From: a virus
Direction: 5' to 3' (one strand)
Length of the DNA stretch: 64,000 nucleotides
Virus record (IMG/VR): IMGVR_UViG_3300032241_002679
Location: 77,844 to 141,843 of that record
The position numbers and the translations under genes were made by a program. Of this stretch, positions 2,177 to 10,826 are shown piece after piece. How positions within the stretch are numbered: the first letter of the stretch is position 1; each line of letters begins with the position of its first letter. The notes under the pieces were generated by a model. The model was given only the letters and a program-made list of their open reading frames with translations, was not told the DNA's origin and searched no databases.

Positions 2177-3592
2177 ATGGTATTAAGAACCTTTTTTGAT
2201 AAAACTAACACTATTGTTTATAATGATTACACCAATACTGGTAGAAACCCAATTGCTCAATTATTCTATGGTGGCTCAGATGGACTAAATACATATAGCC
2301 GTCTGTTATTTCATTTTGATGAATCTAGATTAATTAATTACTATACTGGTGGCACTTTTACAGATTTAAATAAAGTAAAACATATACTTAAATTAACAAA
2401 TACTAGTTCGTTTGATAAATCATTATTAAATACTTCATACGATGGTATATATAATAGAAGCTCATCATTTGATTTAATTGTTTTCCCAGTTAATCAAATC
2501 TGGGACGAAGGTGTTGGTTATGATTATACAAATGGTTCAAATTTAATAAATGGAGATTTGGCTGTTTCTACATTGCCATCTAACTGGTTTTATTCACAGA
2601 GTGGTATATATTGGGATAATGGTGGTGGTACTTTTTCAGGATCACCATCAGAAATGATCATAGCGACACAACATTTCGATGCTGGTAATGAAAATATGGA
2701 AGTTGATGTAACTGATTTTGTGAATGGTATATTAACTGGTAATACAAATTATGGAATGGGTATAGCATATTCTTATGCATTTGAACAAACAAGTACGCCA
2801 CAAATACAGTATGTAGGATTTTTTACAAGACATACTCAAACTGCTTATGAGCCATATATAGAAACAAGATATGAAAACTATATTCAAGACGATAGAAATA
2901 ACTTCTTTCTAGATAAGATTAACAAATTGTATTTATACGTTAATTTGGCTGGAAATCCGACCAATTTAGATACACTACCTACTGTTACAGTATATGATAA
3001 TTATGGTGGCATATTTTCAGCCTATACAAGCTCTGACGTAAATCATATAACTAAAGGCGTTTATAGTATAGATTTACTCATACCAACAAATACATCATTT
3101 AGCGATGGTATGCTATTAAATGATGTATGGGGTAATATTCTTATTAATGGTATATCAAGACCAGATATAAAACTTAGCTTTGAATTAATGGATAGTTGGA
3201 AATACTATAATCTAGGTAGTAGCGATTCATTACCAAAACAAGTAGCTGTAACCGTATCTGGAATATATGCAAATGAAAAAATTAAACGTGGTGATATTAG
3301 AAAAGTAATTGTATCAACAAGAATACCATATACCGTTAATCAGACCCAAGTAATAACTGGATTAAAATATAGACTATACGTAACAGAAGGACAAAATGAA
3401 TTAACTATTGTTGATTATGAACAAATAGAAATGACTAGCAATAGTAATTACTTTTTAATAGATACACAGAGTTTATTACCAAATACTTATTATGTAGATA
3501 TAAAAGTAGAATCTAATTTAGAAATTATTACATTAAGTAATGTATTAAATTTTGATATAACAAGTCAATCAACATGGAGAATTAGCCAATAA
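2177..3592 (+). CDS. Virion structural protein, beta-rich
   Basis: 471 aa, beta-rich, next to baseplate genes, preceded by ATATTTAT at 2157-2164. Confidence 0.55.
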   Translation: MVLRTFFDKTNTIVYNDYTNTGRNPIAQLFYGGSDGLNTYSRLLFHFDESRLINYYTGGTFTDLNKVKHILKLTNTSSFDKSLLNTSYDGIYNRSSSFDLIVFPVNQIWDEGVGYDYTNGSNLINGDLAVSTLPSNWFYSQSGIYWDNGGGTFSGSPSEMIIATQHFDAGNENMEVDVTDFVNGILTGNTNYGMGIAYSYAFEQTSTPQIQYVGFFTRHTQTAYEPYIETRYENYIQDDRNNFFLDKINKLYLYVNLAGNPTNLDTLPTVTVYDNYGGIFSAYTSSDVNHITKGVYSIDLLIPTNTSFSDGMLLNDVWGNILINGISRPDIKLSFELMDSWKYYNLGSSDSLPKQVAVTVSGIYANEKIKRGDIRKVIVSTRIPYTVNQTQVITGLKYRLYVTEGQNELTIVDYEQIEMTSNSNYFLIDTQSLLPNTYYVDIKVESNLEIITLSNVLNFDITSQSTWRISQ

Positions 3593-3957
3593 TGAAAACA
3601 TTTTTTAAAATATTATTATCCGATAGTAATAAAATATCTATGAAAAGATTCATAGGATTATTATGTCTTATTATGTTTATAGCCTATGGAATTGTTGGTC
3701 TATATAAACCATTTAACCAAAGTTTCTGGATATTCTATGTAAGTCTATGTACCATAACCATTTGGATCGCATTTAAATTTATGACATCCGATAAAATTCT
3801 TAAATATGATGTAATTGGTAAACTTACAAAATTTAATAATATTAAAAATGCTGTTGAAAATTTTACAGAAGAAGAAAATGAATTAGATGATAATATTCAA
3901 CCAAATAATACAGCCTCAGGATCTACTTCAAATACAACATCCGCTCCAATGGAATAA
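3592..3957 (+). CDS. Small two-TM membrane protein (holin-like candidate)
   Basis: Two hydrophobic helices after SMKRFIG; polar tail. Confidence 0.45.
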   Translation: MKTFFKILLSDSNKISMKRFIGLLCLIMFIAYGIVGLYKPFNQSFWIFYVSLCTITIWIAFKFMTSDKILKYDVIGKLTKFNNIKNAVENFTEEENELDDNIQPNNTASGSTSNTTSAPME

Positions 3958-4017
3958 TTTTTAAAAATTACTTGACTATTTAATAATTATTATTATATTT
4001 TATTTACGTTAACTCAA

Positions 4018-4075
4018 GTATTGGAACCCAGAATTAAATGTCTGTTGAGTCATTAAATGACAAAGGTTTTAGTAC
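4018..4075 (+). promoter_or_regulatory. Putative structured 5' leader RNA (three-way junction with two ATTAAATG hairpins)
   Basis: 4018-4028 pairs with 4065-4075; hairpins caga-ATTAAATG-tctg (4029-4044) and gtcATTAAATGac (4049-4061). Confidence 0.55.
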
Positions 4076-4106
4076 ATAATAACAAAAAAATTAAAAGTTA
4101 ATTATT

Positions 4107-4964
4107 ATGAAAAAAAACTATGTAAATGGTGCATTGGCACCAAGTGCTGTGATTTGTATTAACAAATCCAGACTAAAAATCTATCACAAAGAAAGTAATC
4201 CGACCTATTATCTAGAAAATGGTCAGGAATTCTCAATTGAACTTCACAATCCAACTCACAATACCGTTCTAGCTAAAATAGAGCTTAATGGTAAGCAGAT
4301 CTCACAGGGTGGTATAGTATTAAGGCCAGCAGAAAGAATCTTCCTAGAGCGTTATATAGACGTTCCTAATAAGTTTAAATTTGAGACATATAAGGTCTCA
4401 AATACTAAAGAAAATAGGGAAGCAATAAAGGAAAATGGGGATATTGTCGTTAGGTTTTATAATGAATCAACACCATATACCACATATACATATAATCCAA
4501 TCCTTACCAATGGTACATATTATAATAATAATTTACAATATTATTATAATAACCCTAACTTTACTACTGCATCACCTAAGTTTACGGTAACTACTACCAA
4601 TGGAATTGCTACTAGTGGTTCTTATAGTGCATTAAATGCATTAAACACTACCAATACCTTTAATTCATCTGGTACATTGAATATGACCACAATGGATGCT
4701 TTTGCTGGTAACGCTACAAGTAATTATACATCATCAATAGAGACTGGTCGTGTTGAAGGTGGAAGTGATTCAAATCAGAAATTTCAATTTGTAAACAAAA
4801 TGTTTGATAATTATCCGTTTTTTACTGTTGAATATAAATTACTACCATTTTCCAATAAAATTAATACTGTGGGGGATATTAATGTTAAAAGATATTGTCA
4901 CAATTGTGGGGCAAAATTAAAATCAGAATACAAATATTGTCCACACTGTTCTGTAAAAATATAA
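4107..4964 (+). CDS. Hypothetical protein with beta-sandwich-like N-terminus and C-terminal zinc ribbon
   Basis: CHNC...CPHC at the C-terminus; T/N/Y-rich linker; own promoter-like TTGACT at 3972 and own terminator. Confidence 0.7.
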   Translation: MKKNYVNGALAPSAVICINKSRLKIYHKESNPTYYLENGQEFSIELHNPTHNTVLAKIELNGKQISQGGIVLRPAERIFLERYIDVPNKFKFETYKVSNTKENREAIKENGDIVVRFYNESTPYTTYTYNPILTNGTYYNNNLQYYYNNPNFTTASPKFTVTTTNGIATSGSYSALNALNTTNTFNSSGTLNMTTMDAFAGNATSNYTSSIETGRVEGGSDSNQKFQFVNKMFDNYPFFTVEYKLLPFSNKINTVGDINVKRYCHNCGAKLKSEYKYCPHCSVKI

Positions 4965-4984
4965 ATAAATAATTGAGTTAACGT

Positions 4985-5013
4985 AAAAAGCTGAGATTTA
5001 CTCAGCTTTTTTT
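4985..5013. terminator. Bidirectional intrinsic terminator
   Basis: aaaaagctgag-attta-ctcagcttttttt between convergent genes. Confidence 0.8.
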
Positions 5014-5016
5014 AAT

Positions 5017-5415
5017 TTAAACGGTATATTTAATTTTGTCATCATCCGCAACATTTGTCTTTAATTCTGATTTTTGAAGTATTTTAATAGCGTTATCTAT
5101 AGATATTATTTTAAACATAGTAAAAGGAACAATACCATCCCATACTACCTCTTCTGCATAACCATATTTTGGCAATTTATTCGTCTTAAATAATATAGCA
5201 ACTTGTCTTTTTTCATTCTTTGGTAAAACAGCACCTTTATTATATATTCCCCATTTTGCTGAAACCGCCCATGTACTAAAACCATCCTTACCTAATGATT
5301 TTTTATCAATTATATTTTTACTATTTTCTAATGTAGTAAAATGTATAAACATATCATCACTTAAACTTTTTTTAATTAGTTCTTCTTTTAATATTTTTTT
5401 TATGAACAATTTCAT
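5017..5415 (-). CDS. Putative internal head protein, ART-like fold candidate
   Basis: Likely start MKLFIKKILKEE, 4 nt after ATATTTAT; FIHFTTLENSKNII motif. The ORF-track extension runs through the MCP terminator. Confidence 0.55.
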   Translation of the reverse strand: MKLFIKKILKEELIKKSLSDDMFIHFTTLENSKNIIDKKSLGKDGFSTWAVSAKWGIYNKGAVLPKNEKRQVAILFKTNKLPKYGYAEEVVWDGIVPFTMFKIISIDNAIKILQKSELKTNVADDDKIKYTV

Positions 5416-5441
5416 AATAATAAATATTGTCTTTAAAACAA

Positions 5442-5467
5442 AAAAGCCCCACATAAGTAGGGCTTTT
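5442..5467 (-). terminator. Intrinsic terminator of the capsid operon
   Basis: aaaagccc...gggctttt just downstream of the MCP stop. Confidence 0.75.
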
Positions 5468-5488
5468 AAGTTTATATTCTTGAATCGA

Positions 5489-7381
5489 TTATCTCAATTC
5501 AGCTACATTAAATGTAACCACACCATCAACTCTAACACCAGCATAGAATCTGTTATTAACAGATTTCTTAGCATAACGTGTCATGATACCTTTAACAGGA
5601 GCAAAGTTGAAAGGATTGTACATAGTTGGGGTTAATTGCAATGGCACATATGGCGCATAGATATAACCAGTATCCAACAATGATTTACCTTTATGACCTA
5701 CAATGACACTGTAAGCAGGAGAATAAGGGTCACGATACACTTGGTAACGACCACTCAATGTTCCAATTCTTTCAATACCCATGTTATATTGGTCTTGCTC
5801 AGGGTTAGCATCACTTACGTGGAAATATTCAAGATCATCGAATATTGCAGAAATTTCTGAAGATACTACGATGAAGTTTGCACCACCACGCAATGTTGAT
5901 TTATGAATTTGTGCGCTAAGTTGATTAATCTTAGTGATAAGAGTTTGGTTCCAGTCTTTTTGTGTATAAGGACTAGCAGCTGAAGAAGCTTTTCTCCAAC
6001 CATTATAATCCCAACGCAATTGCCAAGCACCAAGTTTACGTAAATCTCTAAGGATTTCACGGTCAATTTCAGCAGCAATTTGTTCAGACAACATAGCAGT
6101 CAATTCAGCTTCAGCGTCAATGTTATGGAAAGCACTAACGTCTTGAGCCAATTCAGGTGACCACGTTGCTCTTAATTTTCTTTCTTCAACAGCCACAACA
6201 ACTTCTTGAAGTGTGAAGGTAACTTCTCCAAGTTCTGTTTCAAGTTCCAAAGAACTATATTCAGCCCATGCAAAAGAGAAAATATTAGTATATGCTGATG
6301 CTGTAGAACCAGAAGCTCCTACATAACCATCATAAGTTGATGTACCGTTAACGGCAGCACCAGTAGCAGATGTACCAACTGGATGTCTAAGATCCATCTC
6401 AATATATATTACACCTTGTGGTGATGTTAATGAACCTTTATTTTGAACAATAGCCTTACCATATTGTTGAGTTACTACTCTGAAAGGAACTTCTTTATTA
6501 GCAGCAACAATAACGTTATTATCTTGGTCCAAAATGTTTGAAGAAGTAACACAGTGTAATGAAGCTAAGAAAGATTCAGTATCCATGTTATTACCATCTG
6601 GTCCTGTTAATACTTCAGTACCATTAGAACCACCAGCACCGCCACTAAATCCACTTAAACCGATAATTACACCTCTCAATGAACCATCAGTACTTGTAGG
6701 TAAAGAAGAAGCTGGAGCAGCTACATTAAGATTACCAGTTGAATCAAATGTATAAGCGTTTAATGAAACACCAGTACCTGCACCAGAAGTTTTAATAGTC
6801 AAAGTACCTTTAGAATTATCAAACAAGCCATCATTGTAGAAAATATCATACAAATTTTTAGCATAGAATTGAGTTAATGGTGTGTTATTTGTAGCTTTTA
6901 CTACTGCATAAGGTAATGCAGCATTTGTAGCAGAACCATTGTGTTCACCATTCAATCCAGTATGTGCTGAATATGTTGTACCATATACATCACTACTTGA
7001 AGTTGTGCTATAATCATTTCCTGCAACACCACCACCGTCAACACGGCTAGATGTCTGAGGTACGAAGTAGAACAATTTACCGATAGGCATGTTCATTGCT
7101 TGAACAGATACGATATCGTTAGCCAATAATTTAGAGAATACTCTTCTCACAATTGGGAATACAACTGTTTCGAAAGAACCTGATGAAGTAGCAGTTGTAG
7201 ACTCATTCAAAAGCGTTGATGCTTGGTTCTCATATAATTGGGCAATGTTTTCTTTTACATGACCTTTAAGGCCTTCCAAGAATCCCAAGCTATCCCATTT
7301 TGCTTGAGTTTCTTTACGGATTGCTTTCATATGGTTCAATCCGATGTTACCAACTTGTCCTGATGTTAATAAATGTGACAT
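5489..7381 (-). CDS. gp23: Major capsid protein (T4 gp23-like)
   Basis: VSVQAMNMPIGKLFY, RKLRATWSPELAQD..AFHNIDAEAEL..LSEQIAAEIDREI, YAPYVPL, GIMTRYA motifs. Confidence 0.97.
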   Translation of the reverse strand: MSHLLTSGQVGNIGLNHMKAIRKETQAKWDSLGFLEGLKGHVKENIAQLYENQASTLLNESTTATSSGSFETVVFPIVRRVFSKLLANDIVSVQAMNMPIGKLFYFVPQTSSRVDGGGVAGNDYSTTSSSDVYGTTYSAHTGLNGEHNGSATNAALPYAVVKATNNTPLTQFYAKNLYDIFYNDGLFDNSKGTLTIKTSGAGTGVSLNAYTFDSTGNLNVAAPASSLPTSTDGSLRGVIIGLSGFSGGAGGSNGTEVLTGPDGNNMDTESFLASLHCVTSSNILDQDNNVIVAANKEVPFRVVTQQYGKAIVQNKGSLTSPQGVIYIEMDLRHPVGTSATGAAVNGTSTYDGYVGASGSTASAYTNIFSFAWAEYSSLELETELGEVTFTLQEVVVAVEERKLRATWSPELAQDVSAFHNIDAEAELTAMLSEQIAAEIDREILRDLRKLGAWQLRWDYNGWRKASSAASPYTQKDWNQTLITKINQLSAQIHKSTLRGGANFIVVSSEISAIFDDLEYFHVSDANPEQDQYNMGIERIGTLSGRYQVYRDPYSPAYSVIVGHKGKSLLDTGYIYAPYVPLQLTPTMYNPFNFAPVKGIMTRYAKKSVNNRFYAGVRVDGVVTFNVAELR

Positions 7382-7401: not shown

Positions 7402-8850
7402 TTAATACTTATCTTTATTTTCAACTCTCTTAATCAAATCTTTAATTCTTTGAGTTGAAGGGTCAACATATGCATTTGCTTCGTTTAATTGTTTTGAAGT
7501 GCTACTTGTGACCTCTTTTATTATTTTGTTCCCTAAAGCTTCATTTATTGGTTTTCTTGTACCCAATTCATTAGCAATAGTCTTGTATAATTTTTTAGAT
7601 TCTTTAAGGTTTGTTACTTCCTCATCAAATCTTTGAATTATTTTTTTCTTTTCATCCTTAGTAGTAGAGTGTTCCATAAACAATTTAGTTACGTAACTTA
7701 AATTGCTATTGAATACAACTGTTTCTACTAACATGCTTCTGAACTTCTTAAGAGCCTTTCTGAACTCTTCATTTTCGTTCTTAAGTTGTGTAGCTTCGTT
7801 CAACAATTTCTTGTATTTTACTTCGGCTTCAGAAACAATAGACTTTGTGGAACTTTTAGATTCTGTTTTAATTGCACCATATTCCTGACCGAATTTAGCA
7901 CCAGCGCCTTTTGGTTGCCCAATATCAGCACCAGCACCACCCTTGTGACGGGATTGAGCATTTCCGACTGGAATGGCTTCTTCAACAACATCTTCATCTT
8001 CCTGATCAACTTCAGTTATTGATTCATCTTCTTCATCTTCTTCAGCCTCTGTCATTGATTCATCTTCTTCAGTTTCTGTAATGTTGTCTTTAGGATTACC
8101 TTTTTTTGTGGGTTTCATTTCATCATGGTCGGCACCTTTCATATGTTCTTTGATTTCAGATTCGTCTTCCTCATCTTCTTCCTCATCTTCCTCTTCTTCT
8201 TCATCATCTTCATTAGGTTCCTCATCCATATCAATTTCATATGTTAGGCCTTCATCCTCATTATCCATGTCTTCCATTTCTTCCATGTCTTCTTCGCCAG
8301 ATGTCTCCATACCAAGGTCTCCCTTTTTGACGATGTACTCACCTGGTTCAGAAATGTTGAGATGAATTTCATCTCCCACGATTTCAATTTCATCATCACC
8401 ACTCAATTTCTTGTAGATAGCAATAACGTCATCATCTGATGCACCTGTCATGTCTAATTCATCCCCTCCAAACGCATCTGCGTCCATTCCTGCTTCTTGG
8501 TCTTCTGGACCAACTTCAGCTGAGGCTGGAATCTCGGTGTCATCATCACTGTCCATGGCTTCAGGTTCGTCATCAATTGTTACATCTCCTTTATCACCAA
8601 TTTCATCAGAAGGCTCATCACCATCTTTTTCAATTGGTTCATCAGTTTCAGTTTCATCTGATTCCATACCATCATCATCAACAGCTTCTTCTTCGTAATC
8701 ACTTTCTTCTTTAAGTGATTCTTTCACAACACCATCAATTTCTTCTTTCGCAACGGAACGAAGTATTTCTTTGGTATTGGCATTTAAAGCCTCTTGAATT
8801 TTTTTCAAATCCAAAATAGCTCCTTCTAAAATTTCTTTTTTTTCTGCCAT
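7402..8850 (-). CDS. Prohead scaffold/core protein (gp22-like position)
   Basis: Very acidic middle, coiled-coil C-terminus, many [ILV]xE sites, located between protease and MCP. Confidence 0.8.
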   Translation of the reverse strand: MAEKKEILEGAILDLKKIQEALNANTKEILRSVAKEEIDGVVKESLKEESDYEEEAVDDDGMESDETETDEPIEKDGDEPSDEIGDKGDVTIDDEPEAMDSDDDTEIPASAEVGPEDQEAGMDADAFGGDELDMTGASDDDVIAIYKKLSGDDEIEIVGDEIHLNISEPGEYIVKKGDLGMETSGEEDMEEMEDMDNEDEGLTYEIDMDEEPNEDDEEEEEDEEEDEEDESEIKEHMKGADHDEMKPTKKGNPKDNITETEEDESMTEAEEDEEDESITEVDQEDEDVVEEAIPVGNAQSRHKGGAGADIGQPKGAGAKFGQEYGAIKTESKSSTKSIVSEAEVKYKKLLNEATQLKNENEEFRKALKKFRSMLVETVVFNSNLSYVTKLFMEHSTTKDEKKKIIQRFDEEVTNLKESKKLYKTIANELGTRKPINEALGNKIIKEVTSSTSKQLNEANAYVDPSTQRIKDLIKRVENKDKY

Positions 8851-8984: not shown

Positions 8985-10790
8985 TTAATCTATTAAAAAT
9001 CTATCGATACTTTCTATCAAACGTTCCTTTTTGATAATTCTGTTTTCTACGTATGGTTTTGATTCTTCACGATTTTTAAATACCCATGACCCTGGCGTAC
9101 TTGGAGCAGTAACAACATCCCAACAAATCAATTCAAAGTCATCTTGTACAATTAAATCACCCTTGACTTCTTTAAGACTACCAACACCCCTTGATGATAC
9201 ACCAATCATTATATTATGACGTAATAAATCTGCTACTAAATCTCCTTTAGTAGATACTATACCATAAGTCTGATATCCTTTAGTCATGAGGATTTCCATC
9301 TTACCCATTAGGGTATGATCCTCCCACCATGTTTCAATAATATTGTGTGAAATTCTATCCGCTGAAATAACGCTTGATTCTGGGTGGTCACAATTATGTG
9401 TCCATGCAGATGCGTTGTTATATCTCATAAGCCATGTGTTATTAGGTACAGAGACACAATAAACATTATCATTAATTTTTTCTAATTCTGCTTTTATAAA
9501 CCTATTATCTAATGATATACTTGAAGAATTTTTTTCGGATACTATATACAATGGTTTTGAATTAGAGGCTAATATCTTTCTTTTAATTTTTTTACTTATG
9601 ACTGAAACAGTTCCATTTTCATCCTCAACTTCATTTTCAACTTCATTATCAATAATGTACCTATCAGTTTGTATTCTAGTATTAATTGAAGCACCACTAC
9701 CTAATTTTAATATTATTTCATAGACATCATCAGCTAATTTTTTGGATGTTGTATAATACTCTCTGAGTAGTTCTCCCTTCAAATTATGCCTATTTCTTCC
9801 GTCACCCATTAACAACCATTCAAATAATATATTTAATATTTCAACACTCCAATTTTTAGCATAATTTGGAATATACTTTTCCCAAGAATTTCCTAAAACT
9901 TTTAAATGTTCATATAAATTTTTATCTGTTATAATGAATTGTCTATTATTTGATACCCTATATTTAAATGGTAATCTATTAAGTAGCTCTATTAATTTTT
10001 CTTGTTGAACTGATTTGGTCTGTGTTATAATAACATTATTTATAGTTTTACCGCCACGGCTACCAGAAGTATGCCCCTCAGCAATAAAAATACCTAAAAA
10101 TGCAGCCCAATCTTTTATATCTATTTTAATATCTGTATTTGGTAAAATGAAAAATTCTTCATTTTTACCATTCCAATTACCACCATAATGAATAGAGGAA
10201 TGAGATAATGTAGAATTTTTATTTTTCAATTTCTCATAAAATTCAATAGCTGTTAATTCATATGGTTTATTATACCTATCCCAAAGAATCATTTTATGGT
10301 TCTTTGTTAATTTCATATCTAAAGAACATTTTTTATTATATATGTGAACTAATTCGTCATTATATTTTTTTTCAATTGTATATGAAATTGGCTGTAATTC
10401 AATCTCATTTTTATTTACATTAAGTGTAAAAATTTTCTCACCAGCTACAACATCTGTTATATTTTTCCAGCCAGTACTTGTCAATATTTCTGTGTCTCTG
10501 GTAACACATTCACCGACAGCTCTTCTTTCTCTTATATTTTGTTGATAAATTTCATTCTGTTTTCTTAGAATATCTTCTGGATATATTCTACCGTTACGGT
10601 TTTTTACATTGTATTTTTGAAGAACGACATATACTATTAATTTGTCTGAAGTACTAGATTTTAAATCTATTTTTTCAAATTCACGTATAATATTTTTATT
10701 TCTTTCATCCAATGGTGAAATAAACCCTGCATCCCCTTCAATTAAAAATCCATAACCAGTTTCATTAGCCTTTAATATTTTTATATCCAT
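8985..10790 (-). CDS. gp21: Prohead protease (T4 gp21-like) with LAGLIDADG intein
   Basis: KNRNGRIYP, GE-[intein]-CDHP, GVSSRGVGSL, WDVVTAPSTPGS; start reassigned to MDIKILK downstream of ATATTTAT. Confidence 0.93.
   Translation of the reverse strand: MDIKILKANETGYGFLIEGDAGFISPLDERNKNIIREFEKIDLKSSTSDKLIVYVVLQKYNVKNRNGRIYPEDILRKQNEIYQQNIRERRAVGECVTRDTEILTSTGWKNITDVVAGEKIFTLNVNKNEIELQPISYTIEKKYNDELVHIYNKKCSLDMKLTKNHKMILWDRYNKPYELTAIEFYEKLKNKNSTLSHSSIHYGGNWNGKNEEFFILPNTDIKIDIKDWAAFLGIFIAEGHTSGSRGGKTINNVIITQTKSVQQEKLIELLNRLPFKYRVSNNRQFIITDKNLYEHLKVLGNSWEKYIPNYAKNWSVEILNILFEWLLMGDGRNRHNLKGELLREYYTTSKKLADDVYEIILKLGSGASINTRIQTDRYIIDNEVENEVEDENGTVSVISKKIKRKILASNSKPLYIVSEKNSSSISLDNRFIKAELEKINDNVYCVSVPNNTWLMRYNNASAWTHNCDHPESSVISADRISHNIIETWWEDHTLMGKMEILMTKGYQTYGIVSTKGDLVADLLRHNIMIGVSSRGVGSLKEVKGDLIVQDDFELICWDVVTAPSTPGSWVFKNREESKPYVENRIIKKERLIESIDRFLID
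9393..10508 (-). mobile_element. Intein, 372 aa, LAGLIDADG type, in prohead protease
   Basis: CVTRDTEIL...VYCVSV..WTHN/C; FLGIFIAEG and WLLMGDG motifs. Confidence 0.92.
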
Positions 10791-10826
10791 AGATAATTTT
10801 ATTATAATAAATATGCTAATGGACAT

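Follow-up and report, generated by a model that had tools for sequence, protein, structure and literature searches.

A gap of 149 nt, separating the open reading frames (ORFs) 3592–3957, coding for a small membrane protein, and 4107–4964, coding for a protein of 285 aa, raises two questions: whether the RNA leader encoded there is a functional structure, and what such a structure could do for the gene that follows it. The gap belongs to the window, i.e., the whole 64,000-nt stretch of DNA analysed, which forms the final 64 kb of an IMG/VR virus record that is 141.8 kb long and has an estimated completeness of 40%. The window is AT-rich and encodes a T4-type major head protein; as judged from this capsid protein, the closest cultured relatives are phages of Flavobacterium, with a similar score obtained for an uncultured phage of 484 kb. 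A 613-aa ORF at 8985–10826 (− strand), coding for a protein of the head-morphogenesis region, appears to bear an intein: a Cys-led insert (…GECVTRDTEILT…) with the end …THN followed by C. Between the capsid gene and this ORF, positions 7402–8850 (− strand) encode an extremely acidic (D/E-rich) protein of 482 aa, probably a scaffold or internal head protein.

The leader and its transcription unit

The 285-aa gene looks like a stand-alone mRNA unit with its own promoter and terminator, both predicted; an ORF convergent to it is situated downstream. The features of the unit are the following:

3972–4001, + strand: sigma-70-like promoter found by scanning, with a −35 box TTGACT (3972–3977) and a −10 box TATATT/TATTTT (3994–4001)
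near 4003–4008, + strand: predicted transcript start, inferred from the promoter
4003–4017, + strand: 5′ arm of the clamp P0, TTTACGTTAACTCAA, exact reverse complement of 4973–4987
4018–4028, + strand: 5′ strand of P1 (RNAfold, covariation)
4029–4044, + strand: hairpin P2 (4029–4032 with 4041–4044), loop 4033–4040, AUUAAAUG
4045–4048, + strand: junction J2/3, UUGA (in the family U-(U/A/G)-G-A; A4048 invariant)
4049–4061, + strand: hairpin P3 (4049–4053 with 4057–4061), loop UAA
4062–4064, + strand: junction J3/1, AAA (in the family AAA or GAA; A4063 invariant)
4065–4075, + strand: 3′ strand of P1 (RNAfold, covariation)
4076–4106, + strand: A-rich linker ACAUAAUAACAAAAAAAUUAAAAGUUAAUUAUU, conserved in sequence, with no Shine–Dalgarno sequence
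4107–4964, + strand: putatively regulated gene, 285 aa, Ig-like beta-sandwich plus C-terminal CxxC...CxxC zinc ribbon
4973–4987, + strand: 3′ arm of P0, TTGAGTTAACGTAAA; it begins 9 nt past the stop codon and borders on the terminator
4985–5019, + strand: intrinsic terminator (4985–5011 plus U run), AAAAAGCUGAG-AUUUA-CUCAGCUUUUU plus U run

In homologous loci, TTGACA/TTTACA-N16–17-TATATTTAT is likewise found upstream of the leader, and the terminator comes after the 3′ arm of the clamp. The other genes of this phage possess short A-rich leaders lacking a Shine–Dalgarno sequence. A ATATTTAT motif, which looks like a phage late-promoter element, occurs 15–25 nt upstream of many starts, e.g., 2177, 20771 (−), and 21839 (−); further starts of this type are 29355 (−), 39633 (−), and 46018. 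In the relatives, TATATTTAT doubles as the −10 box of the leader promoter.

A preliminary description of the locus featured a structured 5′ leader in which an 11-bp closing stem encloses two hairpins, and all the pairings described there are present in the sequence. The closing stem P1 comprises 11 bp including three G·U pairs (U4021·G4072, G4023·U4070, and G4024·U4069); its 5′ strand is followed directly by P2, then by the 4-nt J2/3 (U-N-G-A), P3, the 3-nt J3/1 (R-A-A), and the 3′ strand of P1. RNAfold returns the fold composed of P1, P2, and P3 as the minimum free energy (MFE) structure and as the centroid alike. The evidence from the folding of the single sequence is weak (z = −2.4 for the 64 nt and −1.6 for the 108-nt leader); it is the comparison with homologous loci that brings the signal far above chance. 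A 13-codon upstream ORF (MSVESLNDKGFST) lies inside the junction (4038–4079), with its ATG in the loop L2; it is probably meaningless since L2 is not conserved in the relatives. The segment 5271–5283, falling inside the convergent ORF 5017–5454, represents the exact reverse complement, over 13 nt, of the 3′ strand of P1 (4065–4077, GGTTTTAGTACAT), a match dismissed as chance-level in an AT-rich 64-kb window.

The AlphaFold model of the encoded protein (mean pLDDT 75.6) features a beta-sandwich formed by residues 13–120 together with 210–247 and joined to the zinc ribbon by a disordered N/T/Y-rich linker. The protein family numbers at least 600 relatives (E ≤ 0.001), encoded by metagenomic contigs whose length reaches 367 kb. 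Foldseek returned nothing below E 0.05, and the best Z obtained with VIA-align was 6.8, with only generic Ig-like or MSP-like matches; Pfam, PHROGs, and fold searches revealed only the zinc ribbon and a generic Ig-like sandwich. A recognizable RNA-binding fold is absent from the model, and the neighboring genes differ between the clades and offer no functional clue. In type B homologues (L001, L004, and L005), the zinc ribbon is followed by an extra C-terminal domain of ~45–60 aa (…IHYT…YLM.TYNDTLDNFLKR…), which is absent from the protein of the window and from L002.

Covariation and distribution of the three-way junction

Homologous loci were gathered from viral (35) and metagenomic (80) sequences and yielded 79 distinct pairs of upstream and downstream flanks. 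The primary test for covariation used 48 leaders from the clade of the window, aligned by MAFFT from their sequences only. In this alignment, 94.2% of the cells pair vs. 35–47% in the slid controls, and double-sided changes are found at 19 of the 21 pairs; the number of compensatory cells (161) was reached in none of 500 shuffles and compares with at most 25 in the slid controls. In P1, double-sided changes affect 9 of the 11 pairs (all 11 in the alignment of 77 leaders described below). All five family pairs of P2 covary around a loop whose sequence is not conserved. In P3, all five pairs covary as well and 98% of the cells pair, with variants including GUUG/CAAC, GUCAU/AUGAC, GCUG/CAGC, AUCG/CGAU, and GUUGG/CCAAC.

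The covariance model built from the alignment of 48 leaders also finds the sequence-divergent type B leaders. Among 77 distinct leaders aligned with this model, 94.8% of the cells are paired, all 21 pairs covary, and 394 compensatory cells are counted vs. at most 101 in the controls; since this alignment was fitted to the model, the unfitted test on 48 leaders is regarded as the primary evidence. A mixed MAFFT alignment of 69 leaders gave no structure in RNAalifold because the type B leaders were misaligned in it by four columns, hence the use of the clade-specific alignment and the covariance model. The preliminary description had named a lack of covariation among homologous leaders as an outcome that would refute a structured leader; the covariation is strong instead, and the structure is borne out by the retention of P1–P3 through compensatory change. 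Overall, the leader is almost certainly a functional cis-acting RNA structure, whose predicted three-way junction is kept by compensatory mutations in the sequences of about 80 related phages.

Apart from the covarying helices, the family is hallmarked by nearly fixed positions. Four wobbles are near-invariant in the 48 leaders (U·G in 46/46, G·U in 47/47, G·U in 42/48, and U·G in 42/47), and so are the unpaired junction bases, i.e., U-(U/A/G)-G-A in J2/3 (UUGA in 37 leaders, UAGA in 30, and UGGA in 5) and (A/G)-A-A in J3/1. A fixed G·U would read A·C on the opposite strand; therefore, the element works as a + strand RNA. The loops L2 and L3 differ in length and sequence among the relatives, and kissing between them was not detected, their complementarity (1.99) not exceeding that of mismatched pairs (2.13).

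This variability bears on the octamer ATTAAATG, which was initially described as being carried by both hairpins. Both copies are indeed present; still, the second one (4052–4059) mostly belongs to the stem of P3 and not to its loop. The argument for a protein-binding RNA drawn from tandem identical loops fails, since the twin ATTAAATG is specific to the window and L2 and L3 of the relatives vary freely. As these loops are variable and lack mutual complementarity, the twin octamer is best regarded as an accident of this genome. Its candidacy as a functional motif was rejected: it is a common octamer in the window, occurring 29 times vs. 17.6 expected, and is not conserved in the relatives. A possible conformational switch involving ACTCAA (4012–4017) had been suggested, too. 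This hexamer is complementary both to TTGAGT (4045–4050) and to the distal 4973–4978, as described, but the local switch lacks conservation: UUAGAG stands at the junction of relatives that share the AACTCAA flank. The local pairing, be it an alternative fold or a J2/3 pseudoknot, was discarded because it displays no covariation and would break P3, which covaries.

The junction is always found upstream of the same beta-sandwich/zinc-ribbon gene. The covariance model has one match in the 141.8-kb record of the window and one per locus in 80 loci; genome-wide searches gave one match each in records of 636, 462, and 254 kb, and no match at E ≤ 0.1 in the type B records of 257 and 266 kb. Huge phages carry the junction upstream of a homologue as well, namely LR756504 (E 2e-9), LR756500 (E 2e-7), and LR756508 (E 5e-5). 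According to tblastn, the gene is present in the Prevotella Lak megaphages (540–550 kb) and in uncultured huge phages of 460–636 kb. The Lak leaders match the model weakly (E 0.5–1.4); the single-sequence folds of Lak-A1 and Lak-B4 display the same junction, and the differences between the two are compensatory. Thus, by predicted fold only, the junction reaches the gut Lak megaphages. The zinc-ribbon gene with the junction leader was observed in the Lak loci L118, L119, and L122 and in the LR7565xx/LR745206 loci L120, L121, L123, and L124. The possession of the gene and the leader in common with the Lak and the 460–636 kb phages ties the phage of the window to a Bacteroidota-associated huge-phage group.

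The element had not been recognized as a described motif at the outset, and the searches carried out since agree with this: the leader matches no Rfam family. Scanning positions 3000–6000 of the window with cmscan against Rfam 15 (E up to 10) gave no match within 4003–4106, the scan of 15 homologous loci (E up to 5) gave none at any leader, and no DNA-level match was found in the phage collection. The IMG/VR catalogue contains 8,495 unnamed structured-RNA candidates (PMC10690425). The junction apparently represents an undescribed RNA family, absent from Rfam 15, which may be among these candidates.

The end-to-end clamp

The preliminary description coupled the leader to a long-range clamp, a suggestion which gained support from the finding that the clamp itself covaries among the homologous loci. 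In the window, the helix P0 is a perfect 15-mer, or 19/20 bp (with one G·A mismatch) when 4003–4022 is paired with 4968–4987. On its own, a 15-mer inverted repeat is unremarkable in AT-rich DNA. The clamp is present in two large clades, where the first 12–18 nt of the predicted transcript pair with the 3′ UTR. Its placement is canonical in 62 of the 79 distinct loci: the 5′ arm begins within a few bases of the −10 box, and the 3′ arm begins 10–16 nt away from the stop codon, as counted from the first base of the latter, and lies before the terminator. Shifted or bulged versions were encountered in L037, L055, L076, L091, and L116. The true 5′/3′ pairs score at least 11 in 61/79 loci vs. 14/79 with the 3′ flank reversed. 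Since the 3′ arm resides between the stop codon and the terminator, the pairing would turn the whole coding region into a closed loop. This start of the 3′ arm is, judging from the usual footprint of ribosomes, just beyond a terminating ribosome, suggesting that the clamp coexists with translation.

The sequence of the clamp is replaced on both arms together, so that complementarity is kept and sequence is not. The forms documented include ACGUUAAC, GCGUUAAC, GUGUUAAC, UAGUUAAC, UGAUUAAC, and CGUAAUUAAU, along with the unrelated forms GAAACCUUGUU or GACCUUGUG of the other clade; the entire helix is swapped between the clades (ACGUUAACUC to GAAACCUUGUU). Watson–Crick swaps were found at seven core positions, one of which features CG in 21, GC in 8, UA in 5, and AU in 5 cases. 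A symmetric scoring of G·U and A·C mismatches in the clamp was uninformative (82 vs. 83), the signal being swamped by extension into the AT-rich flanks. When the count was redone on helices defined by Watson–Crick pairs, G·U exceeded A·C in the type A core by 15 to 2, counts that are not phylogenetically independent; this excess favors an RNA helix over a DNA repeat. Partition-function folds of 13 full-length mRNAs gave the clamp a pair probability of 1.00.

The conserved core of the clamp spans ~12 bp, and its extension into P1 (4018–4022) was rejected as not conserved. The clamp is not a general feature of the transcription units of this phage either: of the 25 terminators predicted in this genome, only that of the 285-aa gene has such a partner, and the other 24 lack it. 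In the type C leaders, the Lak phages, and LR7565xx, the junction is kept and no convincing clamp was found. Since these distant members retain the junction without a clear clamp, the two elements may have separable functions. In some relatives, P1 is set apart from the 5′ clamp arm by an insertion of 25–40 nt (L037, 1370–1405; L055, about 800–845), which in L037 is a small extra hairpin; the insertions indicate that the junction and the clamp tolerate separation.

Possible modes of action

The reading tentatively preferred, as a real possibility falling short of a probable one, is a two-part mechanism with the junction serving as an operator for a trans-acting factor and the clamp as a protection of the complete mRNA. 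The junction, residing ~30 nt upstream of the start codon, would control the initiation of translation by binding this factor, most probably the encoded zinc-ribbon protein, resulting in autogenous repression. The 5′/3′ helix, in turn, would bury the 5′ end beside the terminator hairpin, protect complete transcripts from 5′-end-dependent decay, hold the start and stop codons close to each other, and thus protect or mark the full-length mRNA. As the leader is exclusive to the gene and co-inherited with it, a feature of autogenous operators, the product of this gene becomes the leading candidate for the factor, and autoregulation by the zinc-ribbon protein is plausible. A plain stabilizer would not need invariant junction bases, and a protein operator would have no obvious need for the clamp.

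One of the rival readings, considered unlikely, is a three-state translational switch, in which the 5′ arm acts as an anti-RBS (the off state, enclosing the junction) until it is captured by the 3′ UTR arm (the on state), so that only complete transcripts are translated and the junction tunes the balance. It amounts to a closed-loop checkpoint of mRNA completeness, likewise of low probability: a 3′-UTR decoy of the RBS, transcribed last, would capture the silencing 5′ anti-RBS, open the start site, and seal both mRNA ends by the terminator, with the junction as a sensor of a protein or a ligand. In keeping with this, the MFE fold of the leader in the window pairs GUUAACU (4008–4014) with AGUUAAU (4096–4102), 4 nt before the AUG; this 7-bp pairing occurs in the leader MFE only, and its support across the loci is weak. 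Of the duplexes possible between 5′ flank and RBS region, the best one is GUUAACU:AAGUUAA for the majority of the type A loci and CCUUGUU:AAUAAGG, i.e., the Shine–Dalgarno sequence, for type B; in L109, matching elements were recognized by eye (UAAUUA for the arm, GUAAUUA for the RBS). Since the 5′ arm is complementary to the pre-start element, the 3′ arm resembles the RBS element: AGUUAA is common to the 3′ arms of type A and the RBS region, the mean longest common substring being 6.4 vs. 4.9 for type-swapped pairs. This exact-match support is, however, absent in type B, and the duplexes are weak (mean −5.9 kcal/mol vs. −4.8 for shuffles) and represent about three independent sequence types with no compensation within type A (L059, L087). 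In the ensembles of truncated RNAs, they pair at 0–0.6 per nt (~0.01 in the window), the accessibility of the RBS is nearly equal in truncated and full-length RNA, and the clades without the clamp still keep the junction. A ligand-independent stabilizer or translation enhancer, in which the junction and the clamp block 5′-end-dependent RNases and present the A-rich SD-less linker, seems about as improbable as the switch. The 5′ stem-loops of ompA and T4 gene 32 are known to block such RNases; in all the clades studied here, the 5′ end is either base-paired or no more than ~8 nt away from P1, the clamp dominates thermodynamically, and the genes of the phage have A-rich leaders without Shine–Dalgarno sequences. 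A precedent exists in hbs (PMC5737220). At the same time, the invariant junction bases and the fixed G·U pairs persist though the proteins are only 30–40% identical, which argues for specific recognition and not for generic stability, and only one gene in the genome bears the element.

A role of the junction as an aptamer for a small molecule or an ion, the stability of P1 setting the access of the ribosome, has a still lower probability. The location in the 5′ UTR, the covarying helices around a few invariant junction nucleotides, and the conserved wobbles are aptamer-like; against a riboswitch speak its occurrence as one copy per genome tied to one gene family of non-metabolic appearance, the presence of only ~7 conserved unpaired bases, the lack of an evident expression platform (neither a terminator nor an occluded RBS comes after P1), and the lack of an Rfam match and of a loop–loop tertiary contact. 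RNase III processing stems are known from the flanks of rRNA and from the early mRNAs of T7, and the 5′/3′ helix could, by analogy, excise a monocistronic mRNA from longer transcripts. This is very unlikely, even though the helix brackets the entire cistron, tolerates G·U pairs, and lies downstream of late genes of the same orientation, no terminator being present upstream of 3972. A processing stem for RNase III is expected to comprise some two turns of nearly perfect double-stranded RNA (at least 20 bp), so the conserved core of ~12 bp is short; in the window, the clamp reaches 15 perfect or 19/20 bp, and stacking on P1 or on the terminator could lengthen the helix. Moreover, the unit possesses both a terminator and a conserved promoter of its own, the latter situated right at the 5′ arm. 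The least likely rival, with hardly any probability left to it, is a repeat acting at the level of DNA, i.e., site-specific inversion, a mobile cassette, or operator sites. A joint change of both arms could also be produced by recombination between repeats, and the type A arms contain the palindrome GTTAAC. The type B arms are, however, not palindromic; in the examined flanks of the 79 distinct loci, the −10 box is upstream of the leader and none looks inverted; the conserved promoter and terminator are outside the repeats; G·U prevails over A·C in the helix core (15 vs. 2); and the adjoining junction features invariant G·U pairs, which would be A·C on the other strand.

The pairing of 4003–4017 with 4973–4987, located between the predicted start and the terminator, has the layout of a 5′/3′-UTR interaction. 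In Bacillus subtilis hbs, such pairing protects or regulates the mRNA: a long-range helix of ~14 bp connecting 5′ UTR to 3′ UTR, beside a structured leader, modulates the access of RNases and links stability to translation (PMC5737220). In contrast to hbs, the predicted phage helix covaries across dozens of lineages, uses the very 5′ end, abuts the terminator, and is accompanied by the conserved three-way junction. Several functional 3′ UTRs, that of hbs included, are not conserved among close relatives (PMC7821165). Documented 5′/3′-UTR pairings are also those of icaR and RNAIII from Staphylococcus aureus, where the 3′ UTR likewise pairs with the 5′ UTR of its own mRNA and thereby controls translation; in icaR, the 3′ UTR carries an anti-RBS and represses, with cleavage by RNase III (PMC7821165). 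In the phage, by contrast, the candidate anti-RBS is located at the 5′ end, and the most that the 3′ UTR would do is to lift the repression. The hok/sok system features a small toxin ORF, an overlapping antisense RNA, and 3′ processing; its mRNA folds back by pairing of its outermost 5′ nucleotides with the 3′ end (fbi-tac), the 5′ pairings being mutually exclusive. The closure of a full-length mRNA by end-to-end pairing is the sole feature shared with this system, which was rejected as a model since the phage gene (285 aa, structural-looking) is not a small toxin ORF.

Autogenous operators include the pseudoknot of T4 gene 32, T4 gene 43, regA, and the leader of the ribosomal protein S15, the S15 sites using a three-way junction plus a G·U/G-C motif. 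Like them, the phage leader is structured, precedes one gene exclusively, and is conserved together with this gene; it differs by the lack of a sequence or model match and by a protein without a known RNA-binding fold. Purine-type aptamers combine a pocket of J1/2, J2/3, and J3/1 with L2–L3 loop–loop pairing. The closing P1, the two hairpins, and the conserved junction bases in a 5′ UTR are similar to those of a purine riboswitch, an assignment rejected in view of the J1/2 of 0 nt and the absence of L2–L3 kissing, of an Rfam match, and of an expression platform. The type III hammerhead core comprises CUGANGA (stems I/II), GAAA (stems II/III), and an unpaired cleavage nucleotide. The three helices, the J2/3 context of the window (CUGUUGAG, loosely like CUGANGA), and the J3/1 AAA (like GAAA) recall it; still, G5 and A6 are missing from the family consensus CUUUAGAG or CUUUUGAG, P1 passes into P2 without an unpaired nucleotide that could serve as the cleavage site, and none of the hammerhead models matches at E ≤ 10. 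The gp32 and GP20 leader motifs of phages have been discussed as well (PMC10690425).

Structured leaders and 5′/3′-UTR pairings are each known already, and the junction family is unannotated in Rfam 15. We know of no other end-to-end pairing of a bacterial or phage mRNA with extensive compensatory evolution reaching beyond a single species. Conservation of the junction extends over a very deep huge-phage clade, comprising freshwater/marine jumbo phages, phages of 460–636 kb and, by fold, the Lak megaphages of the gut, which are not culturable so far; the junction singles out one of the core genes of these phages as specially regulated. If the checkpoint reading were true, the clamp would represent a phylogenetically proven device of 5′–3′ communication in translation of the prokaryotic type. 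The short RNAs, the clear compensatory mutants, and the candidate protein partner offer a route to testing closed-loop mRNAs in prokaryotes with respect to both stability and translation.
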